Shown: piece by piece, positions 1 through 14,617 of the stretch
Numbering within the stretch: the first letter of the stretch is position 1
How the letters are laid out: each line of letters begins with the position of its first letter
Source: Candidatus Eiseniibacteriota bacterium
Lineage (GTDB): Bacteria > Eisenbacteria > RBG-16-71-46 > SZUA-252
Assembly (NCBI GenBank): GCA_031370645.1
Contig: JANMQV010000177.1
Span: 1-14,617, forward strand
Direction: 5' to 3'
DNA length: 14,617 bases
Program-made: the position numbers and the translations under genes
The notes under the pieces: generated by a model
What the model was told of the DNA's origin: nothing
The model's database searches: none
The model's input: the letters and a program-made list of their open reading frames with translations, nothing else

Positions 1-1064
1 AGATAGAACTGATCGCCGCTTTGGGACTTGAACGGCTCGCCGCGGAGCGTGCCGATCCCGCCGAGATCCCAAATCTTCTGTGCCGGGAGGCTCCCCGAGC
101 GTGTGGAACCGAGAATCGCGCGGGCGCGGAAGCCCTGGCCCGGCGAAAGTCGCTGGCGGAGATTTCCCTGGATGCGGATCCGGCCGTAATCGAAATCGCG
201 TTCGATCGGCGCGCCGGCGCGCTCGTAGCGAACGATGATCCGCGACCCGCCTTTCGGCGGAAGCACGGCGGGCCCCACGCGGACCGCGCCCCAGACGAGA
301 CCCTCCTCGCCGCGTTCGATGGCGGGGTTCGCGCGGAAGAGGTCGTCCACGCCCCACGCGGCCACGCGCGTTTCGACGTCGAGTGGGTTCTGATCTTCCA
401 AGCGCGCGCCGGCGGAGAACCCGGCGTCGCGGCCCGGAGTGACGGAGAGGTGCCCTTCGAAGCCCTCGGCCTCGTAATAGTCGAGGTAGTCCTTTCGCGA
501 GAGGAGCGCGAAGAGACTGTTCTCGAATTCGCTCACGATCCAGGCGTCCTCGCTCGCGGTGCGGCGATAGATGCTCCCACCGATCGTGACGGTGCGGGCG
601 CGTCCGATCGGCACGTCGGCGGCGAATTCGGCAAGGAGCCGCTCCCGCGAGATCGCAACCGTCGCTTGCGCGCGAAGAAGCGGGAGCGGATCGACTTCAT
701 TTCGAACGGAGAGCCCGACGGTGGGTGCGGGACCGTCGACGCGGTTGTAGCGGAATCCGATCACCGGCGCGAGGCGATATTCCTCGGGGAGCCCCATCGA
801 GAGCGTCTCCCACTCGGCCGGCTGCGCGGCGGGAAGGGGCGCGGTCGCCGCGGGGGCTCGCAACGAATCGGCGGCGGCCGAGATGGCGGCGGCGGCGCCC
901 GTCACCGCGGTCGCCGTGTCCTCCACCGGGCCGGCGACGCACCCCGCCGCTCCAAGGAGCCCGAGCGCGCCGAATAGCCCCATCGCGCAGCGGCGTCCGA
1001 GCACGCCTGCCCGGCGGGCCACGGCAGCAAGTCCGCGCCGCGACTCGCCCCGCGCGCGCCTCAC
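1..1064 (-). CDS. Outer-membrane beta-barrel protein, Omp85/BamA-TamA- or DUF5686-like; runs off the left edge; absent from the ORF track
   Basis: Manual translation from GTG 1064 (alternative ATG 983) is open to the window edge. It contains IGFRYNRVDG, ENSLFALLSRKDYLDYYEAEG and LPAQKIWDLGGIGTLRG, the last resembling the Omp85 loop-6 LGG..TLRG motif. There is an N-terminal hydrophobic segment LFGALGLLGAAGC. Confidence 0.75.
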   Translation of the reverse strand, partial: MRRARGESRRGLAAVARRAGVLGRRCAMGLFGALGLLGAAGCVAGPVEDTATAVTGAAAAISAAADSLRAPAATAPLPAAQPAEWETLSMGLPEEYRLAPVIGFRYNRVDGPAPTVGLSVRNEVDPLPLLRAQATVAISRERLLAEFAADVPIGRARTVTIGGSIYRRTASEDAWIVSEFENSLFALLSRKDYLDYYEAEGFEGHLSVTPGRDAGFSAGARLEDQNPLDVETRVAAWGVDDLFRANPAIERGEEGLVWGAVRVGPAVLPPKGGSRIIVRYERAGAPIERDFDYGRIRIQGNLRQRLSPGQGFRARAILGSTRSGSLPAQKIWDLGGIGTLRGEPFKSQSGDQFY

Positions 1065-1119
1065 CTCAGGAGGCCGACGCATCGCGCGTGAGTCCATAGC
1101 GCTTGATCTTCCGGTGAAG

Positions 1120-2423
<1,304 letters not shown>

Positions 2424-2427
<4 letters not shown>

Positions 2428-4010
2428 CGGGCGGGCTCCGCGCCGGGAGAAGAAGCCGGGGCGCCTCCGTCCGGCGCGGACGGAAGGGCGACGGTGGCGC
2501 GCGTTCCCGCGCCGGGGCTCGACGTCAGCACGAAGCGGCCGCCATGTTGTTCCACGATTCGTTGAACCAGTGTCAGTCCCAATCCGCTCCCGCTCGATTT
2601 GGTTGTGAAGCCGGGATGCCCCGCCCGTTCGAGGGTCGAGGGATCCATTCCCGGCCCAGTGTCGACGACTTCCAAGAGCACGCCGCCGCCGGGCGCCCCA
2701 TCGCGACAAACGTGCAGCGTGATCTCCCCCTGTCCGCCCATGGCGTCGAGCGCGTTCTTGATGAGGTTCACGAGCACGCGCTGAATCTGTCCCGGGTCGG
2801 CCCAGGCTACGGGAACCGACGCCTCCGCCTCAACGCGGAATGTGACGGGGGAACTCCCGCGATAAAGGCGCGCCACGTCCTCCACCAGCGCCGTGAGATC
2901 GCATGCCTGGAATTTCGGCTCCGGAAGCTGCGCCACCGACGAGAAGGCGGTGGCGAATTCCTGGAGCGAGCGGACCTCGCGGAGGATCGAATCGGTGTTC
3001 TCGCGCACGACCTCCGCACGCGGCCCCTCGTCGCGGCGCGATTCCTCTTGGAGCCGCTGAAGCGCGAATTGGATCGGCGTGAGTGGATTTCGGATCTCGT
3101 GCGCCACCGCGCGCGCCACCTCGCGCCACGCCGCCAGCCGCTCCGCTTTCAGGAGCGCGCGCCGCGACGACTGGATCTCCTCCACCATCCGATTGAAGGC
3201 GCGGCCGAGATAGCGAACCTCCGTCGTGCCACGGGGCGCCACGCGATGATCGAGATCGCCCTGCGTCACGCGCTCCATTCCCGAGCGAAGTTCCAGCACC
3301 GGGCGCGCGATCCCGCGCGATACCGCGACCGCCAGCACGAAGGAGAGGAGGCCGAGGATCACGGTCCAGAGGGCGGCGAAGATCCAGAGGCCACGTTGCG
3401 AGAGGGAGGTGTAGATCCCGAGCCGCCGGTACATGGTGAGATTCTTCTGGAGTGATTCGATCTCGGAGGAGACTTCGGGGTCGAGTTGGTATCCGGTGAG
3501 GATGACGTGAGTCCCCCCGAGCGCCACGACGCCGCTCACCTGGCGCGGCACTTCGCCGCCCGAGACGATTCCCCCTTCTTCGCGCGCGCTGAGGAGCGAT
3601 GCTTTGTCGGGCGCCGGAAGGGTGATCCGCGGGCCCAAGCGCGCGCCGAAGAGGCGCTTCGCTGTCTCGCCGCTCAGATCGTAGAGGCAGATGTAGTCGA
3701 GCCCTCGGCTCCTCGCCTCGTCGCGCAGGTATTTTTCGAGCGCGGGGAACTGCCTCGCTTGGAAGAGGCGGACCGTTTCGCTGTCGAGCGCCAGGACTTC
3801 GCCGTGCTGACGCGCGTCGCTCCCGAGCCGTTCGATTCCCTGGCGGATCACCTCGAGCGACTGTCCCAACGCGCGCTCCGTCTCGGGGTTCCGGAGCATG
3901 GCGAGACTCTTGGCGAGATATTGGGTGACCGCGAAGGTGAGACCGAGGCTCGGAATGAGGGCGACGAGGAAAAAGAGCGCGAGGAGACGCCCGCGCAGCG
4001 TGCGGAACAT
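2424..4010 (-). CDS. Membrane HAMP-domain sensor histidine kinase, NtrY-like
   Basis: Two TM segments flank a periplasmic domain, followed by HAMP. H-box AWREVARAVAHEIRNPLTPIQ is typical of the NtrY family. N-box NLIKNALDA, G1 DTGPGM, G2 GSGLGL. GGAG RBS upstream. Confidence 0.93.
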
Positions 4011-4025: not shown

Positions 4026-5138
4026 TTAGCGCGGCGGCTCCTCCGCCATGCCGGCCAGCTGCCCGCAGGCGGCGCCGATGTCGACCCCCTGGCTGTAGCG
4101 CACCGTCACCGCGGCGACTCGCGGCCCGAGGTAGTCGACGAATCGCTGGATCCGATCGGCGGACGGACGCTTGAATTTCCCCGGTCCGATCGGGTTGTAG
4201 GGGATGAGGTTGATCTTGCAGGGAATCTGACCGACCAGGCGGACCAATTTCGCCGCGTCGCCGACCGAATCGTTGATCTCTTCGATGAGGATGTATTCGA
4301 ACGTCACGCGCCGCCCCGTCACTTCGACGTGGTGGTTCACTGCTTTCATGAGCGGCGCCAGCGGGAAGGTGCGGTTCACCGGCATCAATTTCGAACGCGC
4401 GGCGTCCGTCGCGGCGTGAAGCGAGATGGCGAGCCGGTAGCGATGCCCCTCGTTCGCCAGGCGTAAGATTTGAGGCACGAGTCCGACGGTGGAGATCGTG
4501 ATCCGCTTCGGCGTGATGCCGATGCCCGTCGGCGCCGGAAGCGTGAGGAGTCCGAGCGCCGTGATGACCGCGTCGTAGTTCTCGAGCGGCTCGCCCATCC
4601 CCATCATGACCACATTGAAATCGGATACGCCCGGGGGGAGTTCGCGCCGCAGGCGAAGCGCCTGCTCCAGGATTTCTCCCGCCGTGAGATTCCGCCCGCG
4701 GCCCATGCGTCCAGTGGCGCAGAAGCGGCAGGCGAAGCCGCAGCCGTGCTGCGACGAGAGGCAGAAGGTGACGCGCTTCGGGGTCGACATGTAGACCGAT
4801 TCGACGATGCCGCCGTCGGGAAGCGCGAGCGCGAACTTTCGCGTCTTCCTGTCGGGCGTCTCGCGCCGCGTGGTCTCGCGAAGCGATCCGATGCGATAGT
4901 GCTGATCGAGTTTTGCGCGGAGCGACTGGGGGAGGTTCGTCATCGTGGCGAAGTCGCGCGCGCCGCGGCCGTAGAGCCACTCGGCGACCTGGCGACCACG
5001 GAACGGCTTCTCCTCCAAATCGAGGAGCGTCTTCTCCAGCTCCTCCACAGAAAGGCCAAGCAGGTTCTCGCGCTCGTCGAGAGCGCCGCCCCCGCCGCCA
5101 TTTTGCGACAGGATAATGGGTTCCGGCTTTACAGTCAT
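4026..5138 (-). CDS. rlmN: 23S rRNA (adenine2503-C2)/tRNA methyltransferase RlmN (radical SAM)
   Basis: CLSSQHGCGFACRFC (CxxxCxxC), MGMGEPL, ISTVG, ISLHA, FEYILI, NLIPYNP and C-terminal DIGAACGQL. Confidence 0.96.
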   Translation of the reverse strand: MTVKPEPIILSQNGGGGGALDERENLLGLSVEELEKTLLDLEEKPFRGRQVAEWLYGRGARDFATMTNLPQSLRAKLDQHYRIGSLRETTRRETPDRKTRKFALALPDGGIVESVYMSTPKRVTFCLSSQHGCGFACRFCATGRMGRGRNLTAGEILEQALRLRRELPPGVSDFNVVMMGMGEPLENYDAVITALGLLTLPAPTGIGITPKRITISTVGLVPQILRLANEGHRYRLAISLHAATDAARSKLMPVNRTFPLAPLMKAVNHHVEVTGRRVTFEYILIEEINDSVGDAAKLVRLVGQIPCKINLIPYNPIGPGKFKRPSADRIQRFVDYLGPRVAAVTVRYSQGVDIGAACGQLAGMAEEPPR

Positions 5139-5202: not shown

Positions 5203-6180
5203 TTGCATACGAGGGTTCGCGCTACGCCTGGTCCCACGGAGAGCACGGTCCGCATCGGAGCGGTCGATATCGGCACCAATTCGGTCCGCTTACTCGTGGC
5301 CGACGTCGACCCCCTTCAGCGACTTCGAACCGCCCACCGGATGGGGGAGATCTCCCGGCTCGGCGAGGGGTTGGACCGGACCGGCGTCATCGACGAGCCG
5401 GCCGTTCTCCGCACACTCGAATGCCTCGAGCGCTTCGTTCAGGAAGCCGAATACAGCGGCGCGAGCCACATCCGCGTGGCCGGCACGAGCGCGCTGCGAT
5501 CCGCCACCAACGGCCCCGACGTCGCCGCCCGATTCGCCGACCGGATCGGGTATCCGGTCGAAATTCTCTCCGGCGAGGAAGAGGCCCGCCTCGTCTTCCT
5601 CGCCGTCTCGAGCGGCCTGGCCGGGAAGAGTGGCGCCACGGTCGTCGTCGATATCGGGGGCGGGAGCACCGAGGTCATCGTCGGTTCGGGGGACGAAGGG
5701 CGTGAGGTGATCAGTCTCCCCCTTGGATGCGTCCACCTGACCGAGCGTCTTATCCACAACGACCCGCCACAGACCGCCGAACTCGATGCCGTCCGAAATC
5801 TAGTCCAAACCACTTTCGCCGAACGGCTTGCCGATTTCGGCACAGGCCCCGTGGAGCGGGCGGTCGGAGTCGGGGGGACGGTCACGGCGTTTGGCGCTCT
5901 CGACATGGGGCTCGCCAAGTACGACCCCTCACGAATCGAGAACCACTTCCTGAGCAAGGATCGAGTGCTGGCAATCGAGCGGGAGCTCTGTTCGACGCCG
6001 CTCAAACTTCGCCGGGAGCTTCCCGGAGTGAGCCGGGGGCGCGCCGACATCATTCCGGCGGGGTCGGTCATTCTCTCGGAATTCGTTACCCGTTTCCCGG
6101 TCGGCGGTCTCTTCGTTTCCACACGGGGGCTCCGCTACGGACTCGTTCTGAGCGAGGCCCGACGCGCCATCGGGAGGTAG
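5203..6180 (+). CDS. ppx: Ppx/GppA family exopolyphosphatase / pppGpp phosphohydrolase, short form without a C-terminal HD domain; start uncertain
   Basis: AVDIGTNSVRLLV, RLGEG, GTSALR, ILSGEEEARL, DIGGGSTE, SLPLG, GVGGT, RADII and GLRYG. Confidence 0.93.
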   Translation: MHTRVRATPGPTESTVRIGAVDIGTNSVRLLVADVDPLQRLRTAHRMGEISRLGEGLDRTGVIDEPAVLRTLECLERFVQEAEYSGASHIRVAGTSALRSATNGPDVAARFADRIGYPVEILSGEEEARLVFLAVSSGLAGKSGATVVVDIGGGSTEVIVGSGDEGREVISLPLGCVHLTERLIHNDPPQTAELDAVRNLVQTTFAERLADFGTGPVERAVGVGGTVTAFGALDMGLAKYDPSRIENHFLSKDRVLAIERELCSTPLKLRRELPGVSRGRADIIPAGSVILSEFVTRFPVGGLFVSTRGLRYGLVLSEARRAIGR

Positions 6181-6241
6181 CCCCGGTCTAGACTTTCGGC
6201 TGGAAAACCCAGGGAACTCGAGGTTTGGTCGTATTCAGCCC

Positions 6242-6270
6242 TTGACAGTCGCCCTAAGTCGTCGTATCTT
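6242..6270 (+). promoter_or_regulatory. Sigma-70-type promoter upstream of the small secreted ORF and the TPR activator
   Basis: Perfect -35 TTGACA (6242-6247), 17 bp spacer, -10 TATCTT (6265-6270). Confidence 0.7.
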
Positions 6271-6439
6271 CTGTAACTAGCGGAACTGTACGCAGGCGGG
6301 AGGCCGCCCCCTCTCGGGGATGTCCCTCCACGATTTCGGTCCCAAACTCGAAATCACGTCGCCCGCAAGCGGCACTTCCGTACTCAGGAACGGAAATCGA
6401 TGGATATGCCGGCGTCGATTTACCGACAAGGAGCATGGA

Positions 6440-6757
6440 ATGAGGATCCGGGTCACACAACGCATCCTGCTTCTAGGAATTGTCCTCGCCCTGCTCTGCG
6501 CCCTCCCGGCGGTCACACCCTCGCCTACTTACGCAAGACCTTTCAACTGGGACAAGGATCCAACCGATCCGAACAACCCGGGCCCCATCCTTGGTGATGG
6601 TGATGGGACCGTTGTGAAGGCGCGTTATGTCGGCGGCACCACCTACGACGCTTTGAAGACGTCGACGGTGTCGGTGACCACCCAACGGACGTGGAGCATT
6701 TGGAGGACGTACCTGTCGCTGGTGCGCTGGGGCTTCGGGGGACGCTGGACGCCGTAG
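6440..6757 (+). CDS. Small (105 aa) secreted protein, candidate signalling-peptide precursor
   Basis: AAGGAG RBS (6428-6433) lies 6 nt before ATG 6440. Sec signal MRIRVTQR-ILLLGIVLALLCALPAV-TPSPTYA, then an Asp/Pro/Gly-rich segment (DKDPTDPNNPGPILGDGDG) and a Trp/Arg-rich C-terminus. The 6320 start in the track lacks these cues. Confidence 0.75.
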   Translation: MRIRVTQRILLLGIVLALLCALPAVTPSPTYARPFNWDKDPTDPNNPGPILGDGDGTVVKARYVGGTTYDALKTSTVSVTTQRTWSIWRTYLSLVRWGFGGRWTP

Positions 6758-6830
6758 CGACGCGGTTGTAACGACGCAGTCGCCGTTCAGCAGCCCGATC
6801 TCCTACAGAGACGTTCAACGAGGGCCGGTA

Positions 6831-9800
6831 ATGGACGGAATCGTCCCCAAGGACCGCGCACATAGCCCCTCGAGGGATTCCGCAAACGCCGCGCCGCGGG
6901 TGGAGCTAGCTCCACCCGCGGTCGCGGACGAGCGGGCACAGGAACTCGGCGACCTCTATTTCGCCGCCGAGAATTTCCCGGTCGCCCTCGAGTACTACCG
7001 TCGCGCGCTCGATTTCGAAGCGCGTCGCGCGGACGCGGCGAACCGAGAAGTGATGCTTCGCATCGGGTTCCGGCTCGTCGAGTGCTTGCGGCACCGAGGC
7101 GATCTCTCCGAAGCAGTCGACGCCCTTCACGATCTCCACACGCGGCTCCGCCCCCACGTCACGCGGGAACAAGTGGGCCGCCTCTCGGTTAGCCTGGCGA
7201 TGGTGCTTCAAGACCGCGGCGAATATCGCGCAGCCTACCGCTCCGCCAGCCTCGGCTACCGACTCCTCCGGGACACGAGCCACCACATCGATTTGGGCCG
7301 CGCCGAAGTCGTGCTCGGCCTGGTTGCGCTTCGCACTGGAGACGGTGAAACGGCGCGAGAGCACTTCGAGAGCAGCATCGCCACGTTCCGCCGCGCCGGC
7401 TATCCGGCCGGCATGATGGCGGCGTACAACAACCTCGCGCTGGTGCACAAGAATCAGTGCCGGTTCAAGGAAGCGGCTCGCTTCCTCGAGCAGGCGCTCC
7501 GCATCGGTGAACGCGCCGGCTTCTTCCTCGACTCGGCGACCTTCCTCCACAACCTCGGCATCGTCCACGAGAAGCTGGGCGAACTCGATCGGGCGGAGGA
7601 GCATTACCAGCGCGCGCTGAACGTCTACACCGAGATGGGCTATCAGCCCGGCCGCGCCCGCTCCACGAACTGCCTCGGCATCGTCCGCCGCCGCCGCCGC
7701 GACTACGCCACCGCGCTCACGTTGAGCCGCGAGGCGCTGTCGATCGCGGAAGAGCGGGGGTACGCTCGGGAGCGCGTGGTCATTCAGGAAGCGATCGGCG
7801 ATATCTACGCCGAGAAAGGCGAGTTCGATCTCGCCCGCCGCGCCTACGACACCACCTACTCCCTCTCCGAGCAGATTGCCCCCGAGTCCGACCTCACCGT
7901 GCAGATCATTCGCCGCCTCGGCGATCTCGAGTTGGCGGTCGGCAATCTGGATGCCGCCACGCGCCACGCCGATCGGACGCTCGATCTGGCGCGCCGCCTG
8001 CGGGATCGGTACGAGGAGGGTTGCGGGCTTCGCCTCTACGGGCTCATCCGCGCGGAAGCGGGCGACCTCGAAGCGGCGGCCGCCGCGCTCAGCGAAGCGG
8101 GAGAACTCTTCAGCACGCTTGGCATTCGCTACGAGTTGGCCCGGCTTCAGATCGCCGCCGGCGTCTCCTGGCGGCGCCGCGCTCGCCGCGGCAAGTCGCG
8201 CGGCGTGCTCGACCAGTCGGTCGCGTTCCTGCGCCGCGCGGTCGCGAGTTTCGAAGGGCTCGCTGTTCCCGCCTGGACGTCGCGCGCGCTTCTGGAATTG
8301 GCGCGGAGCGAACTCCTCCGCGGCCTCGTGGACGAAGCGGTCATTCACGTCGACTCAGCCTCCTCGCTGATTCCGAGCGAAGACGATCCCACGTTGGCTC
8401 GGGAAATCGACGAGTTCCGCGCCGAGATCGAGCGCGGGCTGATCGAGGGGACCTCGTCCTCCAGCAACGAATTCGCCGCCTTCGAAGAAGTTCGGGACGT
8501 GCTCCGTCGCGGCGACGCCGATGCGGCCGTGCAGGACGTTCTTTCGGTGGTGGCCCGCCGCACGAACGCCACCCGCGGATTCGTGTCGGCGCCGTCCACT
8601 TCGGGCTCCCTGGAAATCGTCGGAGCGCTCGGCATCGCGCCTCGTTCCGCCCACGAACTGCTGGCCGAGATCGATCGCCGCGTCGGCTCGCCCCGGCTCG
8701 CCTCGGCCCCGCTCGTCGCGAGCCGCGCCAGTGCCGACGAACGATTCCGCGACCTTCCTGCCTCGGCCCACGTGGGTCCGCGCACGACGATCGCGATCGT
8801 TCCGCTGCCGCTTCCCTCGGGCCAGCCCGGCTACCTCTATCTCGACCGGAGCGAGGACGGCCCGTTCGGCGCCTTCAAGCAGCGCGAAATCAATCTCATG
8901 GCCGTTCTGGCGAATCACGTGGCGATGGCGATCTTGGAACTGCAGCGCCAGAAACTGGCGAATGAGAACAGCGCGCTCCGCGGGCGGCTACTCGGCTCGG
9001 CCAACGAACATGGCATCGTCACCCGAAGCCCCGACCTGCTCGAGATCCTCTCGTTGCTCGATCGCGTCGGACCCTCGGACGCCACGATTCTCATCGAGGG
9101 CGAGACGGGAAGCGGCAAGGGCCTCCTGGCGCGCGCCATTCACGCGTCGAGCACCCGTGTTCAGAAGCCGCTCATCACCGTGAACTGCGCCGCGCTTCCC
9201 GAGCACCTGCTCGAGAGTGAGCTCTTCGGCCATGTGCAGGGAGCCTTCACGGGTGCCGTGCGCGACAAGGTCGGACTTTTCATCGAAGCGAACGGCGGTA
9301 CCATCTTCCTCGACGAAGTCGACAAGACCTCGATCACCATCCAGGGCAAGCTCCTACAGGTGCTCGATACGAAGGAAGTGCGCCCGGTCGGCGGTAACCG
9401 CGCGACCAAGGTGGACGTGCGCGTCCTCTGCGCCACCAACGTGAATTTGAAGGCGCGAATCGCCCGCGGCGAGTTCTTGGAGGACCTCTTCTACCGTCTG
9501 AACGACATCTGCTTCCGCGTGCCGCCACTCCGCGAACGGCCCGAGGATGTTCCGATCCTGGTCGAGCACTACGCGCGACGCTACGCGGCCGAGATGGCGA
9601 AGGATATCCGGGGGATCGATTCCGAGTTGATCGGGACGTTCGCCGGGCTTCCGTGGCGCGGAAACGTGCGCGAGTTGGAGAAGGTCGTGAAGCGGATGGT
9701 GGTGATGGCGAACGACGGCGATTCGCTTTCGCTGCGCTTGGTTCCGAAGGAGCTGCTGAAGGTCGAGGAGGAAGTGTCTGAGGGACCGGCAAGTCTCCGT

Positions 9801-9968
9801 GCCGAGGTGGCGAAGGTGGAGCGCCGGCTCATCGCGGGGGCGCTGGAGCGCCACAATTGGAACAAGCTCCAGGCCGCGAAGGAACTTTCGCTCAGCTACC
9901 CGACCCTCCTCCAGAAGATTAAGATCTTCCGGCTCGATCGCCGGACGGTGATTCGGCAAAGAGCTTAA
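6831..9968 (+). CDS. TPR-repeat / GAF / sigma-54 AAA+ / Fis-HTH transcriptional activator (bacterial enhancer-binding protein)
   Basis: About 500 aa of TPR-like repeats (e.g. AYNNLALVHKNQCRFKEAARFLEQAL, LHNLGIVHEKLGELDRAEEHYQRAL). A GAF-like segment ends in GYLYLDR...FKQREINLMAVLANHVAMAI. Walker A GETGSGKG (nt 9099), intact GAFTGA (nt 9240), FLDEV, EDLFYRLN, WRGNVREL and C-terminal WNKLQAAKELSLSYPTLLQKIK. Confidence 0.93.
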   Translation: MDGIVPKDRAHSPSRDSANAAPRVELAPPAVADERAQELGDLYFAAENFPVALEYYRRALDFEARRADAANREVMLRIGFRLVECLRHRGDLSEAVDALHDLHTRLRPHVTREQVGRLSVSLAMVLQDRGEYRAAYRSASLGYRLLRDTSHHIDLGRAEVVLGLVALRTGDGETAREHFESSIATFRRAGYPAGMMAAYNNLALVHKNQCRFKEAARFLEQALRIGERAGFFLDSATFLHNLGIVHEKLGELDRAEEHYQRALNVYTEMGYQPGRARSTNCLGIVRRRRRDYATALTLSREALSIAEERGYARERVVIQEAIGDIYAEKGEFDLARRAYDTTYSLSEQIAPESDLTVQIIRRLGDLELAVGNLDAATRHADRTLDLARRLRDRYEEGCGLRLYGLIRAEAGDLEAAAAALSEAGELFSTLGIRYELARLQIAAGVSWRRRARRGKSRGVLDQSVAFLRRAVASFEGLAVPAWTSRALLELARSELLRGLVDEAVIHVDSASSLIPSEDDPTLAREIDEFRAEIERGLIEGTSSSSNEFAAFEEVRDVLRRGDADAAVQDVLSVVARRTNATRGFVSAPSTSGSLEIVGALGIAPRSAHELLAEIDRRVGSPRLASAPLVASRASADERFRDLPASAHVGPRTTIAIVPLPLPSGQPGYLYLDRSEDGPFGAFKQREINLMAVLANHVAMAILELQRQKLANENSALRGRLLGSANEHGIVTRSPDLLEILSLLDRVGPSDATILIEGETGSGKGLLARAIHASSTRVQKPLITVNCAALPEHLLESELFGHVQGAFTGAVRDKVGLFIEANGGTIFLDEVDKTSITIQGKLLQVLDTKEVRPVGGNRATKVDVRVLCATNVNLKARIARGEFLEDLFYRLNDICFRVPPLRERPEDVPILVEHYARRYAAEMAKDIRGIDSELIGTFAGLPWRGNVRELEKVVKRMVVMANDGDSLSLRLVPKELLKVEEEVSEGPASLRAEVAKVERRLIAGALERHNWNKLQAAKELSLSYPTLLQKIKIFRLDRRTVIRQRA

Positions 9969-9998
9969 AAATCTTGTATAAAGGAATTTGATATACCT

Positions 9999-10031
9999 AA
10001 ACCCATGCACCGCATGGGTTTTCTTTTTTTT
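9999..10031 (+). terminator. Intrinsic terminator after the TPR activator
   Basis: AAACCCATGC-acc-GCATGGGTTT inverted repeat followed by TCTTTTTTTT. Confidence 0.85.
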
Positions 10032-10179
10032 GCCTCCGCGACTAGCAAGTTTCTATTAAACCAACTGTCAACAAGACCCCATCCGAGGACACAAACGGGC
10101 GCCGCGACCAGGTGGTTAACTCGTTTTTTGATTTAGCATTACGGACTTAATTCACCCATCGATAAGGTTCCTCTCTGGA

Positions 10180-10195
10180 TGGCACGTCGGATGCT
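10180..10195 (+). promoter_or_regulatory. Sigma-54 (-24/-12) promoter 1
   Basis: TGGCACG-TCGG-ATGCT. GG (10181-82) and GC (10193-94) are separated by the canonical 10 bp. It follows an AT-rich intergenic tract. Confidence 0.75.
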
Positions 10196-10205
10196 TTGAG
10201 TATGG

Positions 10206-10387
10206 CCCGGAGGGGGGGACCTCCAACGAGCCCGCAGGTCCAGACAGCGTTGGGCCATGAGTTAGCGGCCAGAAAAGGCACCGGCCCTTTTCGAAGACGC
10301 GTAACTCGACAGGAGCTGTCAGGGCCGGGGCTCAATTTTTAAGAGATGACGGCGGCATTCCGAAAGGGGTGCCGCCGTTTCTTTCTT
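10206..10387 (+). ncRNA. Candidate sigma-54-dependent structured small RNA (about 180 nt), family unrecognised
   Basis: Bounded by the -24/-12 promoter and a strong terminator. It contains several nested complementary segments, and no RBS-led ORF of appreciable length starts within the predicted transcript. Confidence 0.6.
10349..10387 (+). terminator. Intrinsic terminator ending the candidate sRNA
   Basis: ACGGCGGCATTCC-GAAA-GGGGTGCCGCCGT (13 bp with 2 G-U pairs, GNRA loop) followed by TTCTTTCTT. Confidence 0.85.
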
Positions 10388-10565
10388 GGTGCACGGCCCG
10401 CCAGCGGGCTCGGCAGCACGCTTGGTACCCTTGCCGAATCCTGTATCCGCGCCGTCACACTGTTCTCTGCGTCACACCCTTTCGTTTATTCGCGCGAAAA
10501 TCCTAGACCCCTGTAAGACGCTGTATTGAAGCAAGTTGCCGCTGAATTCAGGCCCGCCCGCGAAG

Positions 10566-10581
10566 TGGCACGCGCGTTGCG
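10566..10581 (+). promoter_or_regulatory. Sigma-54 (-24/-12) promoter 2, upstream of the lipoprotein-DUF4384 operon
   Basis: TGGCACG-CGCG-TTGC matches the consensus TGGCACG-N4-TTGC. GAGGAGG RBS at 10621-10627 and ATG at 10637 lie downstream. Confidence 0.85.
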
Positions 10582-10636
10582 ATAGCCCTCCTATGTGAAG
10601 GACCCGAAGTTTTAACGTGCGAGGAGGGCAAAAGCC

Positions 10637-11416
10637 ATGAACGGTGCCATGAAAGCGACGCTTACCGGACTTGCCATGCTGGCGCTTCTCGGCGCCACGG
10701 GCTGCAACGACCACAACGACCGCGTGATCGCGGTCGACGCGATCCCATTCACGGTGGACGGGGTCTATAGCGTCACCGGAGACCTTGAAGTCACGATCTA
10801 CTGGCGCGCGAATCAGGAAAGCGACATCGACCATTACAAGGTCTACCGGAACGGTGCCGCGGCCGGCACCTTCACGCTGATCGGGACCTCGAACGGCACG
10901 AGCTACGTGGACGCGAGCGTCGTGAACGGAACCACGTACTTCTATGCAGTCGCGGCCGTCGACGACGCCGGGCAGGAGAGCTCGGCGCTTTCGTATGAGA
11001 ACGTCTTCGACACGCCGCGCCCTGCGGGGATCGACGCCGTGCTGACGAACGCCTCCACGAACACCGCGAACGCCGGATGGGATTTTTCCGGCTTCTCGAA
11101 TCGCACCCTGCTCGACGCGCGGACCGACATCTGGTACGACGTCCAGGGCGCGAGCTTCCTGATCCTCGTGCCGACCGACACCAAGATCCAGGACGCCGGC
11201 TACGTGGCGCTCCGCGACGTCGACTTCGCGCCCCCCTTGGGGTGGTCGACCGACGGCGTGGTGGAAGCGATCGTCGGACACTCCTACATCGTCTACACGC
11301 GCGACGGGCACTATGCGAAATTCGAGGTGATCGCCCGCGGATCGAGCACCTTGACGATGGACTGGGCCTATCAGATCGACCCGAACAATCCGGAGCTAGC
11401 GCGGAGGGTGCCATGA
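10637..11416 (+). CDS. Lipoprotein with a fibronectin type III domain and a C-terminal HmuY-like beta domain
   Basis: Signal ends in LLGATG-C (lipobox). FN3-like VTIYWRANQESDIDHYKVYR...SYVDASVVNGTTYFYAVAAVDDAGQES. The C-terminal GWDFS...YIVYTRDGHYAKFEV...MDWAYQ resembles HmuY-type motifs. Strong RBS. Confidence 0.8.
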   Translation: MNGAMKATLTGLAMLALLGATGCNDHNDRVIAVDAIPFTVDGVYSVTGDLEVTIYWRANQESDIDHYKVYRNGAAAGTFTLIGTSNGTSYVDASVVNGTTYFYAVAAVDDAGQESSALSYENVFDTPRPAGIDAVLTNASTNTANAGWDFSGFSNRTLLDARTDIWYDVQGASFLILVPTDTKIQDAGYVALRDVDFAPPLGWSTDGVVEAIVGHSYIVYTRDGHYAKFEVIARGSSTLTMDWAYQIDPNNPELARRVP

Positions 11417-12864
11417 CCCCTCGTATTCGACTTGCCCTGGCGGCGGCCCTCGTGGCCGCCGCCCCGGTGTTCGCCATGCTCGCCCCGCCGACCGCCTCCG
11501 CGGCGACTCAGGTCGCCCCGGGGCGCGGTCGTTTGTCGGTAGACGTCTGGATCAACAAGGAAGAGGGAGGGGTCTTCCACTCGGGCGAGAAGATGCAGGT
11601 CTACTTCCGCGCGAACCAGGACTCCTACGTGCTCCTCTATAACATCGACACCGAGGGATACATCCACCTGATCTATCCCTTCCGCCCCGGCGATCCGGTG
11701 CACGTTCAGGGGGGCGAGACCTACCGCGTCCCCTCGCGGCACGACCCCTACGACCTCGTGGCGGAAGGCCCCGAGGGCGTCGAGTACGTCGTCGCCTTGG
11801 CGAGCCCCGAACCGTTCCAAGACTTGCCGTGGTATCTGGCGCCCGGGCTCTCGGACGACGCGCGCGACCGGGGCGATGTCCAAGATCAGGGCGACAGCGA
11901 GGACGATCTGGAAGACGGCGTGATTGTCGGCGATCCGTTCGTGGGGATGGAGCGGCTCCATCGGCGGCTCGTGCCGCGCGGGCTGGAAGATCGAGTGGCG
12001 ACCGCTGACACTTATTTCTACATCGAGCGGCGCGTCGAATATCCGCGCTACGTCTGCGCCGACTGTCACCACCGGGCCTACTGGTTCGATCCCTACACCG
12101 ACCTCTGCAGCGTGATCGAGATTCGGATCGATGCCACCTGGGCCCGCTACGTGCCGCTTCGCGTCGGGTCGGCCCGGCCACGCTACTACTACCAGGTCCG
12201 CTCGGGCGCGCCCGACCGCTATCGGAACTGGAAGGAACGCTGGTCATCGCTCGACGGCAGCACGAACCTCCGGACGAAGTTCGTCCTCGAACGTGAAGTG
12301 CGCGATCGGCGACTGCGCGACGGATCGCAGCGGCGGCAGACGCCGCCCGAATTCAAGGATCTCCGCCGCTACCGTCCCGGCCGGTTCTGGAAAGGGCGCG
12401 ACGAGGTGATTCCGCTCCGCGAACGCCGCGAGCGGGTGCTCGAGAAGATTCGCGAGCGCCAGAACAATCGCCCGGGAACTCCGGGTACGCCGGGTACCGA
12501 GGGGCGCACGAGGCCGGGAACCGATGCCCGCGAGCGTCGCGACCGCGGAAGCCGCGATCAGAGTCAGCCGCCGGAGACGCGCGGCGAGGAGCGGCGCCGC
12601 CAGCCCGAACCGCGGCAGCGCTCGGAACCGCAGCAGCGCTCAGACCCGCGGCAGCGCTCGGAACCGCAGCAGCGCTCGGAGCCCCGTGAGCGCTCGGACC
12701 GGCGGGAGCAACCCGAAGTCCGCGAGCGCGAGGCGCCGAAGGAGAATCAGGACCAGCAGAAGGCCCGCGAGGACCGGAGCCGCTCCGAAGACCGTGGTCG
12801 CTCTGAGGACCGTGGTCGCTCCGAAGACCGCGGCCAGAGCGAAAATAGGGGGCGCGGGCGCTAG
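11413..12864 (+). CDS. Secreted DUF4384-domain protein with a CxxCH motif and a charged low-complexity C-terminal tail (483 aa)
   Basis: ATG 11413 overlaps the upstream stop (ATGA) and has a GGAGG RBS. Signal peptide MTPRIRLALAAALVAAAPVFA. DUF4384-like VDVWINKEEGGVFHSGEKMQVYFRANQDSYVLLYNIDTEGYIHLIYP...GPEGVEYVVALAS. CADCH at 12055-12069. Confidence 0.85.
   Translation: MTPRIRLALAAALVAAAPVFAMLAPPTASAATQVAPGRGRLSVDVWINKEEGGVFHSGEKMQVYFRANQDSYVLLYNIDTEGYIHLIYPFRPGDPVHVQGGETYRVPSRHDPYDLVAEGPEGVEYVVALASPEPFQDLPWYLAPGLSDDARDRGDVQDQGDSEDDLEDGVIVGDPFVGMERLHRRLVPRGLEDRVATADTYFYIERRVEYPRYVCADCHHRAYWFDPYTDLCSVIEIRIDATWARYVPLRVGSARPRYYYQVRSGAPDRYRNWKERWSSLDGSTNLRTKFVLEREVRDRRLRDGSQRRQTPPEFKDLRRYRPGRFWKGRDEVIPLRERRERVLEKIRERQNNRPGTPGTPGTEGRTRPGTDARERRDRGSRDQSQPPETRGEERRRQPEPRQRSEPQQRSDPRQRSEPQQRSEPRERSDRREQPEVREREAPKENQDQQKAREDRSRSEDRGRSEDRGRSEDRGQSENRGRGR
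12607..12696 (+). repeat. Five in-frame 18-bp tandem repeats encoding [E/D]P[R/Q][Q/E]RS
   Basis: gaaccgcggcagcgctcg / gaaccgcagcagcgctca / gacccgcggcagcgctcg / gaaccgcagcagcgctcg / gagccccgtgagcgctcg. Confidence 0.9.
12781..12852 (+). repeat. In-frame 18-bp tandem repeats encoding RSEDRG x3 plus a degenerate QSENRG
   Basis: cgctccgaagaccgtggt / cgctctgaggaccgtggt / cgctccgaagaccgcggc / cagagcgaaaataggggg. Confidence 0.9.
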
Positions 12865-12951: not shown

Positions 12952-14617
12952 GTGCGATTCCGCGCGCTCCGCGTCGTTTCCCTGATCGATTCCACCGCCC
13001 GTCTTCGGGCCACCGCGATGATTCTCATCGCCGCGGCCCTTTTCGCGGCTTCCGCTCGCCCCGCTCTAGCGGCCGAGCCGGTGCCCCCTGTTCCCGGAAA
13101 GCAGGGGACGCTCGGCCCGCGCGAGGGATTCGCCGCCCCCCGGATTCCGGGCTTCGGACTCCCCAACGGGATCGACGGATCGCGCGCCCCGCTCGCGGCG
13201 CAGGTCACGCACAACGTGCTCGCCATTCGGGTCGCGTTCTCCGACACGCCGATCGACTCGAGCACGGCTTACTACGACCGCATCCTCTTCTTCATGAACC
13301 AATACTGGAGCCAGACGACGGGCGGCCTCCACGTGATCAGCGCGACCCTCGAGGATTCGGTCTTCACGCTCCCCCACACGATGGCCTACTACGGCGATGA
13401 CGATCGATTCCAGGAACGACTCGCCTTCATGGTGCGAGACCTCGTGGCGGTCGCCGATTCGACGGTCGATTTCAAGAACATGGAACTCATCATCTTTCAC
13501 GCCGGGCAGGGGCAGGAAGCGGACGTGCTCGACAACAGCCACGATCAGGTCTGGTCGGCATTCATCACGGCCGACGACTTCAAGCTGATCCTCCCCGATC
13601 CGAGCGGGCTCCCCGGCGTCGTCACCAACGATTTCGTGGCGCCCGGCGTGCCGTGGCGCGTGAAGGAAGCGACGGAACTCCCCGAATCCGAGTCGCAGGA
13701 CGGCTACTTCTTCGGCATGACCGGCGTCTCCTGCCACGAGTACGGACATCAGCTCGGACTCCCCGATCTCTACGACACGACGCCCGACGTGAACGGCAAT
13801 AACCAGGGCCTCGGCGGGTGGGACATCATGGCCGGCGGCGTTTGGAACGCGAACGGTTTCGTGCCGGCGAGCCCGAGCGCCTGGTCGCGCATGCGCCTCG
13901 GCGTCATTGCGCCGCAACGCGTGATGGCGGACGGCACTTTCCAACTCTCGCGCCTCGACCCGGCGGTTGCGCCCTATCCGCGCGCGATTCTCATTCCGCA
14001 GACCCAGAGCGAGTATCTCCTCCTGGAGAATCGTGACCAGGATCCGAATCGGAATGGATCGTTCGATTTCGACGACACGAACGGCGACGGCCTCTTCGAC
14101 TTCTATGACGACAGCTATCTGAACGCCGAATTCGACTTCTTCCTTCCGGGCGAGGGGACCGGCTCCGGCATCACGGTCTATCACGTGGACGACGCGAAGA
14201 TCGCGGCCACGTTGGCGGACAACGTGGTGAACGGCGACACGTCGCACAAGGGCGTCGACATCGTGGAGGCGGACGGCGTCCAGGACCTCGACGTGCCGCC
14301 GACCGAATTGACCGCCGGAAGCCCCAATGACGTCTTCCGGGGTGGCGGCCACGACGCGCTCACTCCCGACACGAATCCCTCCACCGAGGCGTACGGCGGC
14401 GTGCGAAGCGGAATCTCCATCACGGCGATCAGCGCGGCCGACAGCGTCATGGGCTTCACGGTCGGCGTCGCGCGGAATCGCCCCGGCTTCCCGAAAATCC
14501 TGAATACGCGGCTCATCGTCGGCGCGACGCTGGCCGTCGATCTCAACGGTGACGGCGTCATGGAGTTGCTCGTGCCGGCGCGCCGGACGAGCAATCCGGG
14601 CGAGCTCTATGTCTTCG
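12952..14617 (+). CDS. Secreted M6-family (immune inhibitor A-like) zinc metalloprotease with Ca-binding/FG-GAP-like repeats; runs off the right edge; absent from the ORF track
   Basis: Manual translation from GTG 12952 (or ATG 13018). Signal MILIAAALFAASARPALA; VLAIRVAFSD; IIFHAGQGQEAD...QVWS; zinc motif CHEYGHQLGLPDLYD (HEYGH 13735-13749); Met-turn GLGGWDIMAGGVWN; EYLLLENR; DDTNGDGLFDF; AVDLNGDGVMELLV. Confidence 0.9.
   Translation, partial: MRFRALRVVSLIDSTARLRATAMILIAAALFAASARPALAAEPVPPVPGKQGTLGPREGFAAPRIPGFGLPNGIDGSRAPLAAQVTHNVLAIRVAFSDTPIDSSTAYYDRILFFMNQYWSQTTGGLHVISATLEDSVFTLPHTMAYYGDDDRFQERLAFMVRDLVAVADSTVDFKNMELIIFHAGQGQEADVLDNSHDQVWSAFITADDFKLILPDPSGLPGVVTNDFVAPGVPWRVKEATELPESESQDGYFFGMTGVSCHEYGHQLGLPDLYDTTPDVNGNNQGLGGWDIMAGGVWNANGFVPASPSAWSRMRLGVIAPQRVMADGTFQLSRLDPAVAPYPRAILIPQTQSEYLLLENRDQDPNRNGSFDFDDTNGDGLFDFYDDSYLNAEFDFFLPGEGTGSGITVYHVDDAKIAATLADNVVNGDTSHKGVDIVEADGVQDLDVPPTELTAGSPNDVFRGGGHDALTPDTNPSTEAYGGVRSGISITAISAADSVMGFTVGVARNRPGFPKILNTRLIVGATLAVDLNGDGVMELLVPARRTSNPGELYVF

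Follow-up and report, generated by a model that had tools for sequence, protein, structure and literature searches.

A conserved cassette around a TPR-type sigma-54 activator

We analyzed a 14.6-kb stretch of DNA (hereafter the window; G+C ~67%) from the 3.0-Mb genome of an uncultured sediment bacterium, Candidatus Eisenbacteria. The window contains a cassette in which a sigma-70-type promoter is followed by a structured leader, a gene for a small exported protein, a gene for a TPR-containing sigma-54 enhancer-binding protein (hereafter the activator), a sigma-54 promoter (P1) with a structured small RNA (sRNA), and a second sigma-54 promoter (P2) with an operon of envelope proteins. This cassette, conserved across Eisenbacteria, is read here as a dedicated sigma-54 regulatory module and looks like a hitherto undescribed signalling circuit. 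For comparison, 35 orthologous loci were fetched, 21 within the family of this bacterium and 14 outside it, which together with the window gave 36 loci. A match to the TPR part of the activator was found in 41/41 related genomes. Full-length orthologues were present in all 24 other genomes of the family (58–96% identity), and activator-like proteins of 1030–1090 aa with ~25–34% identity were found in the other families sampled. The order of RlmN, Ppx, small open reading frame (ORF), activator, spacer, lipoprotein, DUF4384 protein and M6 protease was kept across the family, and the lipoprotein gene lay downstream of the activator in 18/21 family loci and 12/14 loci of other families.

The activator gene (6831–9968, plus strand) starts 73 nt past the stop codon of the small ORF and encodes 1045 aa. 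Pfam searches of the protein returned TPR_12 (1e-37), TPR_MalT (1.8e-18), GAF (26.0 bits, against a cut-off of 22.4), Sigma54_activat (PF00158, 6e-62), AAA_lid_14 and HTH_8 (1.1e-9). The domains are arranged as a TPR superhelix (~aa 29–545), a GAF domain (562–701), an AAA+ domain with the GAFTGA motif (729–893), a lid (901–981) and HTH_8 (993–1031). The motifs GAFTGA (G804–A809), GETGSGK and FLDE were invariant in 35 activator orthologues. The genome also encodes rpoN (Sigma54_DBD 3.2e-65, contig C106). With an AAA+ domain carrying GAFTGA and Walker motifs, a Fis-type HTH and rpoN in the same genome, the protein has the properties of a bacterial sigma-54 enhancer-binding protein. It contains no membrane segment and is predicted to be cytoplasmic.

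The TPR part alone comprises ~515 aa, in which N200, N241, R313 and R362 are invariant. An AlphaFold2 model of aa 1–545 showed a superhelix of 26 helices, with a predicted local distance difference test score (pLDDT) of 89.1 and a predicted template modelling score (pTM) of 0.82. When this model was searched with Foldseek, the TPRs of LGN/Pins were the best matches (3sf4, 4a1s, 5a7d, 6hc2 and 4wng; E ~5e-11), followed by OGT and TONSOKU, and no receptor of the RRNPP type (such as Rap, NprR, PlcR or AimR) was among the matches listed, to rank 50. The top-matching LGN/Pins structures were solved with extended peptides in the groove. At the sequence level, the best match of the TPR domain was kinesin light chain (4e-13), and RapF was reached only at an E value of 5e-3. 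Prediction of a complex between TPR aa 1–545 and the mature small protein (aa 34–105), using alignments, gave a score of 0.00 in two runs without controls and was counted neither way.

The small ORF (6440–6757, plus strand) has an AAGGAG ribosome-binding site and encodes a protein of 105 aa. An n-h-c signal peptide with a TYA/RP cleavage-type site is followed by an acidic, proline-rich N-terminal part with GDGDG, a Ser/Thr-rich linker and a Trp/Arg-rich amphipathic C-terminal helix. The frame of a longer in-frame ORF starting at 6320 was not conserved. At all 36 loci, an ORF lies upstream of the activator on the same strand, equipped with a ribosome-binding site and coding for an N-terminus that resembles a signal peptide. 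The ORF encodes 86–126 aa and ends 13–139 nt before the activator. Direct reading of ORFs was needed for this result, as tblastn detected the small ORF at 17/21 family loci and 0/14 loci of other families. Under a strict filter, a small signal-peptide ORF was also found at 28/31 further loci, and the other three held candidates recognized by eye.

The basic n-region, hydrophobic h-region and AxA-type site were conserved at 36/36 loci, which predicts Sec-type export. Across the 36 small proteins only G52, D53 and D55 were invariant or nearly so, within a G-[DE]-x-D motif that takes the forms GDGDG, GDNDG, GDPD[DE] and GEPD, and every C-terminus held an amphipathic stretch, ~18 residues long, enriched in Trp, Arg and hydrophobic side chains. 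In gapless within-genus pairs, third codon positions varied about twice as much as first or second positions; one example pair showed 10/10/25 changes by codon position, with 20 synonymous and 14 non-synonymous codon changes. This excess at third positions fits a coding, fast-evolving small gene. Within the genus, the small protein was 72–88% identical, a divergence about that of other exported proteins, and the activator 91–97%. Searches of Pfam and NCBIfam (E up to 0.01) returned no family match for the small protein, and the nearest Atlas clusters scored 0.88–0.89, under the lead threshold of 0.9. Identity as a PEP-CTERM sorting signal was rejected: there was no NCBIfam match, and the motif lies ~45 residues from the C-terminal helix. 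Separately, an exosortase gene of the EpsH family was found in the same genome (contig C68, 43457–44206; 9.7e-67), and C68 also encodes a sigma-54 AAA+ domain at a distance of ~12 kb. A PEP-CTERM-type system may therefore be present in this genome too.

An original prediction, made from the letters of the window, had placed a small ORF with a Sec signal 73 bp before a TPR-GAF-AAA+-HTH activator with an intact GAFTGA motif. Both genes were recovered in this form, the ORF through its conservation at all 36 loci and the activator through its Pfam domains and the invariance among 35 sequences. The same prediction had proposed collecting homologues of the 1045-aa protein and looking for a small signal-peptide ORF upstream and -24/-12 boxes downstream; the ORF was upstream in 36/36, and the boxes were found downstream, as described below.

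Four small-protein/TPR-activator pairs in one genome

The genome encodes ~19 sigma-54 AAA+ domains, and four of its sigma-54 activators are of the TPR type: that of the window and those on contigs C20, C131 and C175, the last of which is cut by the contig end. A GAF domain is present only in the window paralogue, the C20 activator being without one. In the C131 activator the GAFTGA loop is degenerate (GEESDVGTAG), so this protein may not contact sigma-54 in the usual way. All four TPR activators have a small ORF of their own in front of them, on the same strand, which encodes a signal peptide and a Trp/Arg-rich C-terminal helix. On C20 (L192) the small ORF lies at 542–868 and the activator at ~940–3413; on C131 (L193) the small ORF lies within 363–956 and the activator at 1020–3329; on C175 (L194) the small ORF is at 1515–1835 on the minus strand, with the activator downstream. 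The four small proteins share a common core of the G-[DE]-x-D type with paralogue-specific flanks, the motif reading AWAGG[ST]PDETL-PP for C20, GDPTADDQPSPTPK for C131 and AGDPDTPESPYSGP for C175.

These small ORFs recurred in related genomes. The C20-type ORF (paralogue 2) was found at 16/17 loci examined, other families included, and the C131-type ORF (paralogue 3) in the genome itself and at 12/15 fetched loci, two of the three misses being cut by contig ends. We also passed the whole 3.0-Mb genome, in six frames, through a filter requiring a hydrophobic N-terminal segment, the motif and an aromatic, basic tail. Exactly four ORFs were returned, and these were the four small ORFs described above. 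Upstream of 16 non-TPR activators the filter gave one match only, a false positive.

Because the upstream ORF is consistent and the pairing occurs at all four TPR activators of this genome and nowhere else in it, a dedicated partnership between small protein and TPR activator is well supported at the level of sequence. The paralogue-specific flanks of the motif favor a cognate partner over a generic leader. In addition, the fixed order and short spacing in all four ancient paralogues favor stoichiometric or translational coupling.

Promoters, RNA elements and target genes

The operon of the small ORF and the activator is preceded by a sigma-70-type promoter, TTGACA-17-TATCTT (6242–6270, plus strand), which was the sole such site found by a scan of 6150–10700. 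Its -35 element CTTGAC was identical in 22/22 same-family sequences, and a TATnnT -10 element was kept with a spacer of 17/18 nt. The promoter is followed by a structured 5' leader of ~160 nt (6278–6439, plus strand) containing a conserved UCCCUCC, which resembles an anti-Shine-Dalgarno sequence. RNAalifold analysis of 22 family sequences gave 19 pairs in the leader, 13 of them with compensatory changes, and the leader may be a cis-regulatory RNA. The UCCCUCC could pair with a Shine-Dalgarno sequence or start region; the motif was not kept outside the family. Pairing of the sRNA hairpin described below with this UCCCUCC was considered and dropped, because the leader motif is not kept beyond the family. 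An Rfam search at E values up to 1 returned no match for the leader or the sRNA.

Between the small ORF and the activator lies a 73-nt spacer (6758–6830, plus strand), in which a GC-rich hairpin without a U-tail precedes the conserved activator start region GAGGGCCGG-N-ATG. No terminator-like site was found in this spacer. RNAalifold returned no consensus structure for it, and the per-sequence probability of the activator Shine-Dalgarno sequence being paired ranged from 0.11 to 0.98. Directly after the activator stop codon, an AT-rich palindrome of the TATAAA-N5-7-TTTATA type (9976–9996, plus strand) is kept by the family when the stretch between the activator stop and P1 is aligned; it is a candidate protein-binding site and might serve as one. 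An intrinsic terminator with a 10-bp stem and a T-run (9999–10029, plus strand; 9999–10021 in the scan) closes the operon.

The pattern TGGCAC-N5-WTGC occurred in the window exactly twice, at 10180 and 10566, both on the plus strand. The chance expectation was 0.01, and two matches were obtained in 0/200 shuffles. The first site, P1 (TGGCACGTCGGATGCT; 10180–10195, plus strand), lies ~210 nt after the activator stop codon; this distance was 171–212 nt in the window and all 21 family loci and 198–362 nt in 13/14 loci of other families. An inverted repeat, GTTAAC-N-CATTAC (10115–10142, plus strand), is found 37 nt upstream of P1 and is a candidate activator site. Its family form, GTAAC-N15-17-GTTAC, was conserved in the family alignment. 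From their position and conservation, P1 and P2 are predicted to be driven by the activator. Among 20 sequencing runs listed for 6200–11000, none was an RNA dataset.

P1 is followed by a structured sRNA core (10205–10343, plus strand), whose fold was predicted with RNAalifold. A 5' hairpin, GGAGG-GGGGGA-CCUCC (10209–10224), precedes a rod closed by GAGCCC/GGGCUC and a U-run. The 22 family sequences aligned over 139 nt with zero indels and gave 33 pairs, 11 of them with compensatory double changes. A covariance model of the family sRNA scored other families at merely 20–33 bits, and the sRNA body is therefore family-specific, whereas the hairpin is found phylum-wide. In its own genome the hairpin sequence is single-copy. 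The combined pattern of P1 plus hairpin was present in 168/206 phylum genomes (a count that takes in one unpublished genome, G099) and in 101/121 high-quality ones, with 0 matches to a reversed control, and it was single-copy in all genomes listed except one. The hypothesis of a 6S RNA was ruled out, since 6S RNA is encoded on another contig.

A scan of all species representatives gave at least 119 stretches with P1 plus hairpin, of which 80 loci were read. Their titles named Eisenbacteria or Eiseniibacteriota in 57 cases, no phylum in 16 and another taxon in seven. In 77/80 loci the activator lay upstream on the same strand, 75 times at 173–346 nt, and the remaining three had <450 nt of upstream sequence. 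At two loci from other families, L045 (minus strand, 1759–3384) and L048 (5718–7454), P1 and the hairpin were followed, without a terminator, by a gene for a winged-helix/AAA ATPase (PF22977 and PF00004), so that the hairpin can also head an mRNA. At L044 the gene downstream of the hairpin was PorV-like, with scores under or near the Pfam cut-offs.

The 3' end of the sRNA probably differs between genera. A terminator hairpin at 10348–10379 was kept only in the window and three same-genus loci (L021–L023); the remaining 18 same-family sequences in the alignment lack it. In this genus the U-run of the core is weak and a second terminator follows, and the sRNA probably extends here to ~10388 (terminator 10348–10388). 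The sRNA of the original prediction was supported as a structured RNA behind P1; its hairpin at 10348–10379 does not stand as the general terminator, and the conserved core ends at ~10343.

A comparable site was found at one of the paralogues. A sigma-54-like sequence, [CG]GGCAC-N5-ATGC[TA], lies 280–400 nt after the C20-type activator in 12/14 loci (L195–L207; ~27299 on C20 itself, ~3700 in L192). It is followed within the family by a conserved RNA stretch (GGGCCGCGGA.GATGGGGAGCTCTCAG), which may be a second activator-linked RNA.

The second promoter, P2 (TGGCACGCGCGTTGCG; 10566–10581, plus strand), is a perfect consensus and lies 71 nt before the lipoprotein gene. Allowing up to two mismatches, P2 was found 60–98 nt before this gene in 17/18 family loci that hold the gene. 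An inverted repeat of the same type as that of P1, TGTAAG-N17-GTTGC (10512–10539, plus strand), lies 26 nt upstream of P2, and the two repeats are the best candidates for the activator binding site. Further upstream, ~105–125 nt before P2, a TGT-N12-ACA(C/G)TGT element with the core GTCACACTGT (10442–10463, plus strand) shows strong conservation within the family, and nothing like it was seen upstream of P1.

Three exported proteins are encoded behind P2. The first gene (10637–11416, plus strand) encodes a putative 259-aa lipoprotein, in which fn3 is weakly matched, below the Pfam cut-off; the Atlas clusters closest to it contain hypothetical proteins from Ignavibacteriota, WOR-3 and Gemmatimonadota. 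The second (11413–12864, plus strand), whose start overlaps the lipoprotein stop (ATGA), encodes an exported DUF4384 protein of 483 aa (Pfam DUF4384, 5.8e-21). Its tail (~12500–12864) consists of long low-complexity Arg/Ser/Glu/Pro/Gln repeats with RSEPQQ and RSEDRG units. The third gene (13018–14617, plus strand), which leaves the window, encodes an exported metalloprotease of the M6 family that contains HEYGH as a motif as well as an FG-GAP repeat (Peptidase_M6 1.7e-13; TIGR03296 116.4 bits, cut-off 110.8).

The transcriptional layout had been foreseen in the original prediction, and these parts of it stood. They comprise a single sigma-70 promoter (the sole site in 6150–10700, conserved in 22/22 family sequences), the lack of a U-tailed terminator between the two genes (no terminator-like site at 6758–6830), a terminator behind the activator (10-bp stem and T-run at 9999–10029), two -24/-12 promoters (the exact pattern at 10180 and 10566 only, conserved in relatives) and an envelope-protein operon behind P2, formed by the lipoprotein, DUF4384 and M6 protease genes.

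The cassette is flanked upstream by genes for an NtrC-type sigma-54 response-regulator activator (1120–2709, minus strand), a HAMP histidine kinase (2424–4010, minus strand), RlmN (4026–5138, minus strand) and Ppx/GppA (5203–6180, plus strand). The pair of HAMP histidine kinase and NtrC-type regulator (1120–4010, minus strand) is separate and lies 2 kb upstream of the cassette.

Input to the activator and known systems

We propose the following mechanism. The sigma-70 promoter would transcribe a bicistronic operon for the Sec-exported small protein and then the cytoplasmic activator, and the small protein would be the cognate input element of the activator. Before its export, the small protein would expose a stretch in the form of an extended peptide, namely the acidic, proline-rich G-[DE]-x-D segment, the Trp/Arg-rich C-terminus or both, and this stretch would occupy the LGN-like groove that the TPR superhelix forms. 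The cytoplasmic level of unexported small protein would set the assembly of the AAA+ ring, and the active activator would bind the conserved repeats in the downstream spacer and fire P1, yielding the structured sRNA, and P2, yielding the three exported proteins. We tentatively favor the view that the module is an export- or envelope-state sensor reading the not-yet-exported small protein via its TPR domain. The sites bound by the activator, its control of P1 and P2, and the whole input step are put forward here as predictions. Stoichiometric co-expression of two partners would agree with the invariant gene order and the short distance between the genes. Moreover, the small protein appears to be largely disordered with two short conserved motifs and would be the kind of ligand that LGN-like grooves take.

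Several points weigh against an export sensor of this kind. Judged by the positive-inside rule and the conserved AxA site, both conserved motifs of the small protein would be located outside the cytoplasm, and contact with the TPR domain therefore needs a pre-export pool or re-import. The signal peptides themselves were judged by eye and with a hydrophobicity heuristic only. As the four pairs descend from one ancestral pair, their exclusive pairing cannot separate a binding partner from a cis-acting leader. The GAF domain could carry the real signal. Finally, P1 and P2 would be assigned to this activator, among ~19 in the genome, by conserved adjacency alone.

The small ORF could instead be a cis-acting export monitor like SecM, MifM and VemP, with the TPR domain sensing something else. 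The ribosome would pause on the Trp/Arg-rich C-terminus until the translocon pulls the signal peptide, and the pause would remodel the spacer and set the translation of the activator. Such a mechanism would agree with the N-terminal export signal and the ~20-residue C-terminal stretch conserved in all four paralogue families, with an ORF that is always upstream on the same strand, 13–139 nt from the activator, and with the stable GC-rich hairpin without a U-tail in every spacer; monitoring substrates also share this gene order (PMC7897499). However, the regulated gene encodes a transcription regulator and not a Sec or YidC component, the small protein has no RAPP-like or other known arrest motif, and no conserved spacer structure hides the Shine-Dalgarno sequence, given pairing probabilities of 0.11–0.98. 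The conserved G-[DE]-x-D near the mature N-terminus, with its paralogue-specific flanks, would also be left unexplained. We consider arrest-based monitoring unlikely.

A purely periplasmic role is similarly doubtful. Under this reading the small protein would act as a ZraP- or CpxP-like accessory, for example as a chaperone or an inhibitor, or together with the P2 proteins, and would only be co-expressed with the activator; what the TPR and GAF domains detect in the cytoplasm would be ligands or proteins that have nothing to do with it. The predicted topology outside the cytoplasm and a target operon of three exported proteins are consistent with this idea, and small periplasmic accessory proteins of sigma-54 envelope systems exist, ZraP being an example. 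Yet the pairing with TPR activators is exclusive (4/4, with no copy elsewhere in the genome), paralogues 2–4 have all kept the small gene, and the cassette contains no membrane transducer.

The cassette had first been put forward as a candidate RRNPP-like peptide-sensing system. In RRNPP-like cell-cell signalling, a processed fragment of the small protein, either from its acidic, proline-rich mature N-terminal part or from its C-terminal part, would be re-imported, bind the TPR groove and switch the activator. Passages of PMC10075063 give the RRNPP signature as a pro-peptide of 10–100 aa (RRNPP_detector), Sec export, a receptor of 250–500 aa, TPRs and adjacent genes. Four of these five points hold or nearly hold here: Sec export (judged by eye and hydrophobicity), a TPR receptor, direct adjacency (13–139 nt in 36/36) and a pro-peptide whose size straddles the 100-aa limit (105 aa in the window, 86–126 aa across orthologues). 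In addition, the several orthogonal-looking cassettes per genome recall Rap-Phr families, paralogue 2 has an AWA/G cleavage-type site directly before the motif, one Opp/Dpp-type binding protein (SBP_bac_5) is encoded, which is necessary but not sufficient, and the modelled TPR appears to be of the type that binds extended peptides.

On the other side, the receptor is 1045 aa long against 250–500 aa and shows only generic TPR similarity to Rap, NprR, PlcR, PrgX, Rgg or AimR (RapF at 5e-3, none among the Foldseek matches listed). Across the phylum these are single-copy core genes in a syntenic arrangement, with no dialect pattern at the within-genus identities of 72–88% for the small protein and 91–97% for the activator, and a fragment would have to traverse the outer membrane twice in a two-membrane bacterium. 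The peptide gene is invariably first here, a gene order from which rap-phr, plcR-papR and aimR-aimP differ. Because of the receptor size, the kinship of the TPR domain and the core, single-copy nature of the genes, membership of RRNPP is not supported, the label failing on a 1045-aa receptor with an LGN/kinesin-light-chain-like TPR in syntenic genes with the small gene first. Cell-cell signalling of the RRNPP kind is accordingly quite improbable.

A broader possibility, to which we give little credence at present, is that TPR receptors in the cytoplasm fused to sigma-54 activators form a class, each reading its own exported protein or peptide, with four orthogonal pairs here and perhaps others in related uncultured phyla. 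If true, this would be a two-membrane counterpart of Gram-positive RRNPP signalling, wired to sigma-54 and a dedicated sRNA. The system offers a well-defined setting for asking how an exported protein can be read by an AAA+ activator in the cytoplasm. Its parts are small enough to be rebuilt in a laboratory host, and it is therefore testable although no member of the phylum has been cultured.

Sigma-54 activators are switched by phosphorylation, by small molecules at GAF, PAS or V4R domains, or by anti-activator proteins. In the main text of open-access full-text papers and preprints, we found no description of a sigma-54 activator that carries a TPR sensor and has an exported small protein as its dedicated partner. 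Similar to RRNPP systems (Rap-Phr, NprR-NprX, PlcR-PapR and AimR-AimP, of Bacillota and phages), the cassette sets a cytoplasmic TPR protein beside a small protein with a Sec signal, and several such cassettes occur per genome. Unlike in those systems, the receptor is twice the size and fused to GAF-AAA+-HTH, with sigma-54 activation as its output; the small protein is ~100 aa long with conserved internal motifs and a C-terminal helix; and the genes are phylum-wide core genes of two-membrane bacteria with the small gene always first. The TPRs of LGN/Pins and kinesin light chain bind extended, often acidic peptides in their concave groove. As these are eukaryotic scaffold proteins, the likeness lies in the type of repeat and not in function or ancestry.

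The arrangement also resembles SecM, MifM and VemP, for which PMC7897499 describes small ORFs that lie directly upstream of the regulated gene in one operon and encode an N-terminal export signal together with a conserved C-terminus. In our case the downstream gene is a transcription activator, no known arrest motif is present, and a second motif lies near the mature N-terminus. The PrsK/PrsR/PrsT system, linked with PEP-CTERM, likewise brings together a TPR protein, an activator of sigma-54 promoters and small secreted proteins that carry N-terminal signals and have hydrophobic, basic C-termini (PMC1569441). There, however, it is the secreted proteins that serve as targets of sigma-54; the TPR protein is a lipoprotein of its own, and a response regulator acts as the activator.

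The output side has precedents in Pseudomonas. For CbrB-CrcZ (PMC5113210) and NtrC-NrsZ (PMC4253122), passages of the two papers describe an sRNA gene directly downstream of the activator with its own -24/-12 promoter. Like CrcZ and NrsZ, the sRNA described here lies beside an activator gene and is preceded by a -24/-12 promoter of its own; it also ends in a terminator and is conserved in structure. It bears no sequence or Rfam relation to them; it carries the phylum-wide GGAGG...CCUCC hairpin and a rod-like body that differs between families, and its activator is a one-component TPR-GAF protein and not a response regulator. Thus, an activator followed by its own sigma-54 sRNA was already known, and what is new here is the sensory arrangement of the sigma-54 activator together with the sRNA family.

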